A stretch of 36,621 bases of DNA from a virus. Both the position numbers and the translations under genes were made by a program. The stretch lies in the IMG/VR virus record IMGVR_UViG_3300020037_003876. One strand, 5' to 3'. This document shows positions 26,992 to 27,708 of this stretch, one piece after another. How positions within the stretch are numbered: position 1 is the stretch's first letter; each line of letters opens with the position of its first letter. The notes below the pieces were generated by a model. That model did not search any database, was not told the DNA's origin, and worked only from the letters and a program-made list of their open reading frames with translations.

Positions 26992-27108
26992 TTGTTAGTG
27001 ACCGGAGCTGAGTCTCTTTACCCGGCATGGCTTCAAAGTGTTCCAGTCCATCTCTGCCTACTACACTGGTTTCGCTGCACGTCAGCTTAATCGTGCATTC
27101 ACTAACAA
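26992..27108. repeat. Module I: a 10-bp closing helix plus a conserved internal hairpin.
   Basis: ttgttagtga (26992-27001) pairs with tcactaacaa (27099-27108). Hairpin gcacg (27077-27081) / cgtgc (27092-27096) has loop tcagcttaat. Confidence 0.7.
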
Positions 27109-27199
27109 GTTGTTGATACTTCCTTGGCTACCTCAAGCATGGCGGTTAGAGGATTTTTAACTACGCCAATTTACCCAGAAATATCAACACTTCTTAGTG
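27100..27199. repeat. Hairpin IIa.
   Basis: cactaacaagttgttgata (27100-27118) pairs with tatcaacacttcttagtg (27182-27199), with one C.C mismatch and one bulged T. Confidence 0.7.
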
Positions 27200-27208
27200 C
27201 TGCATTCA

Positions 27209-27351
27209 CTAACAATTAAGGCGGCTGGGCTTGATACCAGCTCCGGGCTGCTAATGTACTGAGCTACATTCCGGTTCCTCGTGACTTTATCTCAGTTTGC
27301 ACCAAGCGTGTCCTTACGGTTTTATCCTCCACGCCGCGCCTTAATTGTTAG
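27209..27351. repeat. Element B1, closed by a perfect 15-bp helix.
   Basis: ctaacaattaaggcg (27209-27223) pairs with cgccttaattgttag (27337-27351). Inner hairpins: 27224-27241, 27253-27270 and 27306-27334. Confidence 0.75.
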
Positions 27352-27373
27352 CCATCCGTATCGTGGATGAGAC

Positions 27374-27490
27374 GTGTTAGTGACCGGAGCTGGTACTATC
27401 CCGGCATTCCCGTTTCTTGATTGATCAGACCAAGCGCAAGGCAAGTACCCACCTCAAGGCACGTCAGCTTAATCGTGCATTCACTAACAA
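27374..27490. repeat. Module I', the second copy of module I.
   Basis: tgttagtga (27375-27383) pairs with tcactaaca (27481-27489). 27459-27492 is 34/34 identical to 27077-27110, and 27374-27392 is 18/19 identical to 26992-27010. Confidence 0.75.
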
Positions 27491-27618
27491 GTCATGTGCT
27501 CTAAAGGCGAAAAGCGGTTCCGGTATCTTGGACAGTCCAAAGGGCGTCAGGCACTTTGACCCTACGCCCTGCCGGTGCGACCTTCTCGGCTTGTAATAAG
27601 AGCACATGCTTCTTACTG
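27482..27618. repeat. Hairpin IIb.
   Basis: cactaacaagtcatgtgctct (27482-27502) pairs with agagcacatgcttcttactg (27599-27618). Confidence 0.7.
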
Positions 27619-27625
27619 CTGCATT

Positions 27626-27708
27626 CACTAACAAGAAGAGACTAATGGGCTTACATTCCCCTTCGATCAAAAGACCTCCGCTAATGCCAAAGTCTCTTCT
27701 TCTTAGCG
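27626..27708. repeat. Hairpin IIc.
   Basis: cactaacaagaagagac (27626-27642) pairs with gtctcttcttcttagcg (27692-27708), 15/17 bp. Confidence 0.7.

Follow-up and report, generated by a model that had tools for sequence, protein, structure and literature searches.

A modular array of structured elements in the early operon of a lambdoid-type phage

The early operons of temperate phages are usually read as strings of small open reading frames (ORFs). In the phage sequence IMGVR_UViG_3300020037_003876, about 1.4 kb of the rightward early operon, between the replication genes and ninB, holds no credible ORF according to the ORF listing (minus strand, from 28204 down to about 26830), which raises the question of what occupies this stretch. 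Below, the window is the whole 36,621-nt sequence that was analysed; coordinates are those of its plus strand, and the array described here is read on the minus strand. An earlier reading of the sequence (the original prediction) had pointed out three hairpins in this region, described on the plus strand and as a stand-alone trio. Repeat analysis and alignments showed that the three are units of a larger modular array (approximately 26830-28204, about 1.4 kb or 4% of the window), which consists of at least ten units of at least three families, and the functional strand proved to be the minus (sense) strand.

Hairpins and the selected strand

The plus-strand sequence bore out the pairings that had been proposed for the three hairpins. 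In type IIa (27100-27199) tgttgata (27111-27118) pairs with tatcaaca (27182-27189), in type IIb (27482-27618) catgtgctct (27493-27502) pairs with agagcacatg (27599-27608), and in type IIc (27626-27708) aagagac (27636-27642) pairs with gtctctt (27692-27698). As had been described, all three hairpins start with CACTAACAAG and finish with CTTCTTA(G/C)(T/C)G, CAAG is followed by an extra T in IIa and IIb, and the halves of the upper stems are unrelated between hairpins yet complementary at these positions. The C.C mismatch reported for the lower stem is present in all three on the plus strand; on the selected minus strand it is a G.G mismatch, and the bulged base is an A on the 3' arm. When both strands were folded, IIa-c adopted the predicted structures, with shuffle z-scores of -3.6 to -4.1 for the plus strand and -5.0 to -5.9 for the minus strand.

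Relatives of the array were collected from IMG/VR and metagenomes by pattern searches and protein-anchored searches, which gave about 14 genomic contexts with many close relationships among them (individual loci are given as L numbers). Among 19 type-II-like hairpins from the window and these relatives, 17 were more stable on the sense strand, and the summed free energy (dG) was -681.8 kcal/mol in sense versus -531.5 kcal/mol in antisense. G.U pairs numbered 59/644 on the sense strand versus 27/601 on the antisense strand. The basal helices contained 30 G.U pairs and no A.C mismatch, the sole later exception being a visibly hybrid copy in L122. Type I-a, a unit of another family, was more stable on the minus strand as well, like IIa-c, and the orientation of the arrays matched that of the flanking ORFs in nearly all contexts. 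The sense bias of both folding and wobbles indicates that the selected molecule is single-stranded and of sense polarity. Most simply, it is RNA of the early operon, and we consider it probable that the units are structured sense-strand RNA modules.

Single-stranded DNA (ssDNA) of the same polarity would be another candidate, with the hairpins acting on the lagging-strand template as priming or primosome-assembly (ssi-like) sites or as other protein-binding sites. The O-like initiator gene contains 5.5 perfect copies of a 15-bp repeat (29664-29746, encoding (TDSLN)n), which are presumably the origin iterons. The array begins about 1.5 kb downstream of them, and for a fork leaving these iterons in the direction of transcription the sense strand would be the lagging-strand template. 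Moreover, the hairpins fold with DNA parameters too, the minus strand slightly better, and ssDNA hairpins tolerate G.T wobbles. However, G.T pairs are weak in DNA yet frequent here, and L084 has the same O and P genes and no array. In L011 the units are scattered among morons over more than 2 kb, and in L123 a lone unit stands between terminator-like hairpins. Ten or more units of several families are also unlike known ssi sites, and altogether an ssDNA signal seems very improbable to us.

Conserved handle and covariation

The motif CACTAACAA, with at most one mismatch, occurs 28 times in the window versus 10.2 +/- 3.0 expected (0/100 shuffles), and 11 of the 28 sites fall in 26992-28105. On the minus strand the type II hairpins share a handle, 5'-CACUAAgAAG / CUUgUUAGUG-3', which includes the G.G mismatch; three pairs higher up, the 3' arm usually has a bulged A. 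The basal helix is near-continuous over 15-24 positions (median about 20-21) for units of 64 to 188 nt. Above the handle the sequence varies freely, the cargo measuring 64 to 188 nt.

Pairing was counted in an anchored alignment of the lowest 18 positions per arm of 13 distinct hairpins from the window and its relatives. Paired cells amounted to 95.3%, versus 72.6 +/- 2.0% in shuffles and 33-50% in slid controls. Twelve of 17 pairs were changed on both sides, in 47 cells, and none of 500 shuffles matched any observed measure. The base of the hairpins, which had been called invariant, is not strictly so, since it covaries as CUAAG/GUUAG, CCAAG/GUUGG and CUAAC/GUUAG: the fourth base pair changes between U-A, C-G and U.G, and the AA/UU pairs beside the G.G mismatch never vary. 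Because the 13 hairpins are mostly paralogues, this result speaks for a hairpin form that is maintained or regenerated, not for classical orthologous covariation.

Orthologous pairs add modest support. IIc and its homologue in L096 differ by two compensatory pairs and three changes to or from G.U, with a conserved loop (GGGGAAUGUAAG); I-b and its counterpart in L091 differ by two compensatory pairs; and IIb of the window and of L113 carry an apical hairpin of the same shape and place with a different sequence. The structural selection proposed in the original prediction is thus supported by pairing that is kept although the sequence is completely replaced, by compensatory and G.U changes between orthologues and by the strand-asymmetric wobbles.

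Organisation of the array

On the minus strand the units follow each other in the order H7, H6, spacer, I-b, IIc, IIb, III-a, I-a, IIa, III-b and tail hairpin. With the linkers and short hairpins, the features are as follows.

28112-28204, minus strand: hairpin H7, the first of the array, 2 nt past the stop codon of a 130-aa gene
28026-28105, minus strand: hairpin H6, base ACUAACAAA/UUUGUUGGU, a C-G pair replacing the G.G mismatch of type II
27928-27995, minus strand: spacer element, a Y-shaped tRNA-like mini-structure between H6 and I-b
27901-27917, minus strand: short hairpin UGACCGGGUAAGAGUCA, directly 5' of type I-b
27714-27899, minus strand: type I-b unit, with closing helix, two conserved hairpins and variable core
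27709-27713, minus strand: linker UGCAG, a short form of the AAUGCAG junction
27626-27708, minus strand: type IIc hairpin (IIc of the original prediction)
27619-27625, minus strand: linker AAUGCAG, from sequence reading and repeat analysis
27482-27618, minus strand: type IIb hairpin (the IIb proposed earlier), in the window and L113
27375-27481, minus strand: type III-a unit, with 5' hairpin AAUGCACGAUUAAGCUGACGUGC, variable core, conserved CCGG hairpin, then CACUAACA
27353-27369, minus strand: short hairpin CAUCCACGAUACGGAUG, 5' of type I-a
27207-27352, minus strand: type I-a unit, ends conserved as in I-b, core different
27200-27206, minus strand: linker AAUGCAG, from sequence reading and repeat analysis
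27100-27199, minus strand: type IIa hairpin (the IIa proposed earlier)
26992-27099, minus strand: type III-b unit, from repeat analysis and alignment
26907-27000, minus strand: tail hairpin CACUAACAAAACC...GGUUUGCUGUG, read directly and seen as a local stem in the fold; its 5' arm overlaps the end of III-b

The type II family comprises IIa-c together with H7 and H6, and in this family the base is conserved and the remaining sequence is free. The base of H7 (UCUAAgAAU/AUUgUUGGA) has the G.G mismatch as in type II. A variant copy of H6 is present in L113, and IIc was found in nine identical copies across the fetched sequences, the window included. Type I units have an invariant closing helix of 15-16 bp (CUAACAAUUAAGGCG/CGCCUUAAUUGUUAG) and conserved internal hairpins (GCGUG-GAAGGA-CACGC, followed by the variable core and then by GCUGAUAUCAAUCUCAGC). 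Type III units keep their hairpins at both the 5' and the 3' side, vary in the core and end in CACUAACA. A short hairpin directly precedes each type I unit, and equivalent short hairpins of unrelated sequence stand before other type I and type II units. A fold of the whole array was attempted and was uninformative, because the identical arms of the type I units cross-pair.

The units are joined by (AA)UGCAG, which results in the recurring junction ...UUGUUAGUG-AAUGCAG-CACUAAGAAG...; on DNA, the junction TTGTTAGTG-AATGCAG-CACTAAGAAG is conserved over 25 nt. Read in one frame, it contains two stop codons followed by a mini-ORF of three codons (UAG UGA AUG CAG CAC UAA). Sites with this mini-ORF are found in the window (27200-27206 and 27619-27625, with their flanks), in L090 (690-715), in L011 (2395-2412) and in L092 (6005-6020), those of L090 and L092 being given in sense orientation. 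A perfect complementarity of 12 nt (TACCAGCTCCGG / CCGGAGCTGGTA) was also noticed between the last hairpin of I-a (27235-27246) and the CCGG hairpin of III-a (27384-27395), which could reflect inter-unit pairing or could be the trace of a shared motif.

The 8-bp end helix of the spacer element has a bulged U; of the two hairpins, one has a 7-nt loop and the other a T-loop-like loop (UUCGAUU), and ACCA is found at the 3' end. With z = -0.4 to -1.4 the fold falls short of significance, and the element was found only in this phage (L110, L111). ARAGORN, run on the window and on 21 loci with default settings, detected neither tRNA nor tmRNA. With an 80% threshold it gave two poor calls, of which the better-looking one coincides with the spacer element (27928-27995) and folds non-significantly, and the idea of a tRNA was rejected.

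The short conserved base, the extrahelical base and the variable terminal part of these imperfect hairpins are reminiscent of integron attC sites (…TAAC/GTTA…), and as with integron cassettes, units are gained and lost at a core. The array could accordingly be an integron-like cassette array with attC-type sites for a tyrosine recombinase. The ends resemble R''/R' boxes (CTAAC...GTTAG; in type I GACTAACAATT...AATTGTTAGTC), and ORFs in L090 and L011 are bounded by TGTTAGTG. In attC sites, the strand that folds is the recombinogenic bottom strand, which is antisense to the cassette genes and carries 5'-AAC-3' in the R box, with the extrahelical bases on the opposite arm (PMC5027507). In the array, by contrast, the sense strand is selected and this geometry is reversed: the AAC strand (the plus strand of the window) bears the extrahelical T on the arm of the AAC itself, which is the non-recombinogenic arrangement, and the C of that AAC is mismatched (C.C). 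The AAC strand is pyrimidine-rich and has A.C mismatches where the other strand has G.U, and the minus strand of type II carries AAG, not AAC. No integrase or recombinase family was found in the early and accessory ORFs scanned (the structural genes were left out). Most units would be "cassettes" of 64-190 nt without an ORF, 5-7 nt apart. We consider this explanation largely refuted and give it hardly any credence.

Relatives and exchange of units

A BLAST search with the array gave no match among 50,697 phage records or E. coli genomes. The pattern TGCATTCACTAACAA had 77 matches in IMG/VR, of which L011 and L063 are related and the remainder look like chance, and CGCCTTAATTGTTAG matched L011 plus three chance sequences. 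A gapped type II pattern gave 26 matches, the only real ones being L011 and L123. A search of 185,579 representative bacterial genomes (GTDB) with the type I 19-mer yielded nothing beyond three chance matches.

Comparison of the relatives showed that whole units, apical inserts and even ORFs are gained, lost or swapped exactly at the conserved junction. IIb stands between IIc and III in the window lineage only and is absent there from L091, L107, L108 and L109, which indicates insertion or deletion of a whole unit; in L113, H6 is joined straight to IIb. Five or six apical inserts, unrelated to one another, occur on the GAUUGAGAU stem (L011, L101, L109, L119 and L063). The TAG of TGTTAGTG at the junction is the stop codon of ORFs in L090, L011 and L092, which replace the cargo or stand between units. 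In L084, which has the same neighbouring genes and a 130-aa protein that is 81% identical, only H7 is kept and two small ORFs replace the array. The gain and loss of units, the swapped cargo and this dispensability show that the array is accessory and cassette-like and that the junction is the point of exchange. The three ORFs that end at the junction UAG in L090, L011 and L092 are mutually unrelated; their shared end may reflect the recombination joint alone or a role in translation.

Exchange at conserved ends would also be expected of selfish or neutral palindromic DNA (MITE/REPIN-like), or of mere recombination linkers, which have no RNA function and whose ends persist by promoting their own exchange. 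In line with this, the breakpoints between relatives lie at the conserved ends, the same stems carry different inserts, and truncated or hybrid copies occur (the second copy in L011, a type I stub in L119 and the L122 copy with C.A mismatches). A parallel exists in the PeSL-mediated shuffling in T4-type phages (PMC2839356, PMC4122927). However, repeats that act at the DNA level should be strand-symmetric, whereas the structure here is strand-asymmetric, with its wobbles on one strand. Units show no relationship in their upper stems and interiors, which leaves no common transposase end. Internal loops are conserved and internal hairpins covary. No transposase or RAYT gene was found in the ORFs scanned, and the type I motif has no real copies in the representative bacterial genomes. 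MITE, REP and REPIN elements were rejected on these grounds, and the wider explanation by selfish palindromes or linkers appears quite unlikely.

Small signal-peptide proteins (morons) recur beside the RNA modules, in L011 (908-1201 and 2849-3352) and in L063, L119, L122 and L092. Behind each such moron come a conserved 3' element (ACCAAAGCCUGUGAGG...CUCAGGC) and a type II hairpin, in this order, which suggests that a moron gene and its RNA modules travel together.

In L123 (3180-3350) a lone type II hairpin (dG -39.8 kcal/mol) lies between two terminator-like hairpins with T runs, apparently antisense to most of the neighbouring ORFs. Possibly this is a small RNA version of the module that is transcribed on its own.

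The GAUUGAGAU insert of L063 (approximately 5900-6010, sense, the reverse of the stored locus) has a T-arm-like GGGTTCGATCCCC and a D-loop-like AGCGGTAGAG, and in L119 (2888-2930) GGCAGGTTCGACCCC adjoins a unit. ARAGORN called no tRNA in these T-arm-like pieces of L063 and L119, which may be tRNA-derived cargo.

Comparison with known families and functions

None of the described RNA families that were tested matches the array, and about 1.4 kb of the early operon is spent on strand-selected structured RNA outside these families. Rfam 15 gave no match in the window at the gathering threshold, only chance-level miRNA and snoRNA matches on 26700-28300 at E <= 10, and nothing in ten related loci at E <= 1. 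A literature search on the motifs found nothing relevant. Several functions were considered and rejected. For a CsrA sponge, the 28 GGA on the sense strand are about what the composition predicts; for an antisense regulator, complementarity to the rest of the window never exceeds 12 nt. A type III toxin-antitoxin system (ToxI-like) does not agree with the heterogeneous units; Tandem Repeats Finder detected no array in 26830-28204, and no toxin family was found downstream.

The position of the array in a long single-direction operon, in a window without a recognisable Q or N gene, is what would be expected of cis-acting RNA signals, such as put- or nut-like antitermination sites, an anti-Rho structure or REP-like barriers to 3' decay, by which upstream cistrons would be protected and morons insulated. 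Stop codons lie a few nt before H7 and several solitary type II hairpins, and a T run follows H7 in L084. The short hairpin located 1-2 nt 5' of a long one recalls two-stem put sites. On the other hand, ten or more heterogeneous tandem units far exceed such a need, types I and III are internally elaborate, with conserved motifs, and the close relative L084 dispenses with the array in the same operon. U tracts are absent, and a scan of 26500-28700 gave a single terminator-like site, away from the junctions, versus 1.8 expected, so that such sites show no enrichment. The units are followed by AAUGCAG and not by U runs, and on these grounds we rejected intrinsic terminators. Composition that avoids Rho was likewise rejected, with a C/G ratio of 0.76, like that of the flanking genes. 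Overall, we think it unlikely that the array consists of such cis-acting signals.

Processing hairpins are a closer parallel. In phages T7 and T3, RNase III processing hairpins lie between the genes of early and late mRNAs, and rRNA operons have processing stalks. Like the T7 and T3 hairpins, the units of the array are phage-encoded, belong to a polycistronic operon and have a helix of about two turns with a conserved lower stem and a small internal loop or mismatch; the basal helix (15-24 positions, a 1x1 G.G mismatch and a bulge) is of the kind cut by RNase III in T7. In contrast to those hairpins, the helix closes large and heterogeneous cargos, at least ten units stand in tandem without intervening genes, and both handle sequence and linker are conserved. 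Cleavage in the array is a prediction from structure.

The PeSLs of T4-type phages combine a sigma-70 promoter with a terminator stem-loop (PMC2839356, PMC4122927). As in that system, short conserved motifs flank accessory genes in plastic regions and provide homology for modular shuffling between phages; the breakpoints of the array lie at junctions or stems in comparison with L084, L113, L091 and L107-L109, and also in L011, L090, L092 and L119. The array differs in that it has no promoter or U tract and consists of long RNAs with variable tops, in gene-free tandem and in a lambdoid phage. In 26500-28700 one weak promoter-like site was found versus 3.1 expected, and none at the junctions; a regulatory cassette of the PeSL type, which requires promoter and terminator, was rejected.

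Y RNAs and other end-paired scaffold RNAs are similar in that pairing of the 5' and 3' ends gives a long conserved stem, which has a non-canonical feature and presents a variable module, and some cargos of the array have T-loop-like hairpins (UUCGAUU, GGGUUCGAUCCCC). They differ in that the units are arrayed, that no Ro/Rsr gene was found, and that the Y_RNA and YrlA families of Rfam gave no match (E <= 10 in the window, E <= 1 in ten loci).

A conserved palindromic junction of 25-27 nt that alternates with variable segments also brings CRISPR arrays and RNA anti-CRISPR repeats to mind. The junction end GCAGCACUAAGAAG vaguely recalls the end of the type I-F repeat, GGCAGCUAAGAAA, a likeness limited to about 11 nt. 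Similarly, UGCAGCACUAAGAAG (e.g. 27190-27215, minus strand) is loosely like the 3' end of this repeat, GGCAG|CUAAGAAA, with its 8-nt crRNA 5' handle. The Cas6f hairpin (CUGCC...GGCAG) of type I-F is absent from the array, and therefore the likeness is probably due to chance. Unlike spacers, the variable segments (45-170 nt) are structured RNAs with self-complementarity, each half of the junction pairs with the far end of its own unit, and no cas genes were found in the ORFs scanned, so that a CRISPR array or RNA anti-CRISPR was rejected.

In its probable working the array resembles the T7-type processing hairpins, and in its evolution PeSLs and integron cassettes; it is a member of none of them.

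Proposed processing of the modules

In the reading that we favour, the minus-strand transcript of the operon would fold into a chain of independent modules, in which the two-turn basal helix and the single-stranded linker serve as a shared recognition or processing signal. Likely cutters would be RNase III, acting on the helix, and/or RNase E, acting in the linker at GA|AU; separate stable structured RNAs would result, and the flanking mRNAs would be uncoupled. The excision of each hairpin as a separate small RNA, which had been raised in the original prediction, is plausible and is the mechanism that we prefer. Secondarily, the conserved 25-nt junction would provide homology for the exchange of units, apical cargos and protein-coding morons, and by this exchange the array evolves like a cassette array. 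Taken as a whole, with co-transcribed structured RNA modules and a common handle of about 20 bp that is both processing or recognition signal and recombination joint, we find this reading to be evenly balanced between right and wrong. The specific processing step is more tentative than the whole.

Several points weigh against this reading. We infer transcription and processing from position and orientation only. The asymmetry of the G.U pairs fits ssDNA of the same strand equally well, and with DNA parameters both strands fold too. The closing helix of type I is invariant and therefore gives no evidence of covariation, and the invariance of this helix and of the linker could be due to recombination or concerted evolution and not to a protein that reads them. 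RNase III is not known to require sequence conservation for recognition. A gene for an RNA-binding protein or a nuclease was not found in association with the array; the 130-aa protein is without a family or fold match. Finally, the sample of about 14 genomic contexts is small, and many of these are closely related.

A bolder possibility, which we regard as doubtful, is that the array represents an undescribed "RNA cassette" system of temperate phages, with a universal handle, a dedicated factor and interchangeable RNA cargos. A host or phage factor would read the handle (the helix of about 20 bp, AAgAA/UUgUU, the bulged A and the (AA)UGCAG linker) and would release or present decoys or tRNA-like and anti-defence RNAs, while phages would trade cargos and morons. 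If true, this would be a counterpart of integron cassettes at the level of RNA.

If the units are released, they would form a new set of phage non-coding RNAs. The array sits in the accessory (nin) region, where functions in host takeover and anti-defence tend to lie. The conserved junction is an example, at the level of sequence, of the "linker" sequences that have long been postulated in modular phage evolution, here extended to RNA modules. As a short portable helix that tolerates any cargo, the handle might also be a tool for processing or insulation in synthetic operons.

Genomic setting

The phage is of the lambdoid type. On the minus strand the gene order is a Cro/YdaS-like gene, the O-like initiator gene, a P-like gene, the 130-aa gene, the array, small ORFs, NinB, HNH/DUF968, RusA, a methyltransferase and the terminase, and the phage also encodes the recombination genes RecT-like and YqaJ. 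For the 130-aa protein upstream of the array no Pfam or PHROG family was found, and its AlphaFold model (pLDDT 79) had no PDB fold match at E < 1. Among the loci that bear an array no common gene was found. Families of integrase, reverse transcriptase, Cas, HUH or transposase were not found in the early and accessory ORFs, to which the scan was confined.

In L114 (4327-5364) an IS630-family (DDE_3) transposase is located inside the homologue of the 130-aa gene, at the position that the array has in the window, which makes the array site an insertion hotspot.

In a BLAST search of the wider window, the gene of a pentapeptide-repeat protein (31128-31928, plus strand) was the sole match; it resembles known phages (Salmonella, Rheinheimera) at the DNA level, as no other part of the window does. 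This gene holds a 15-bp repeat in 32 copies (31229-31713), which results in long spurious antisense ORFs.

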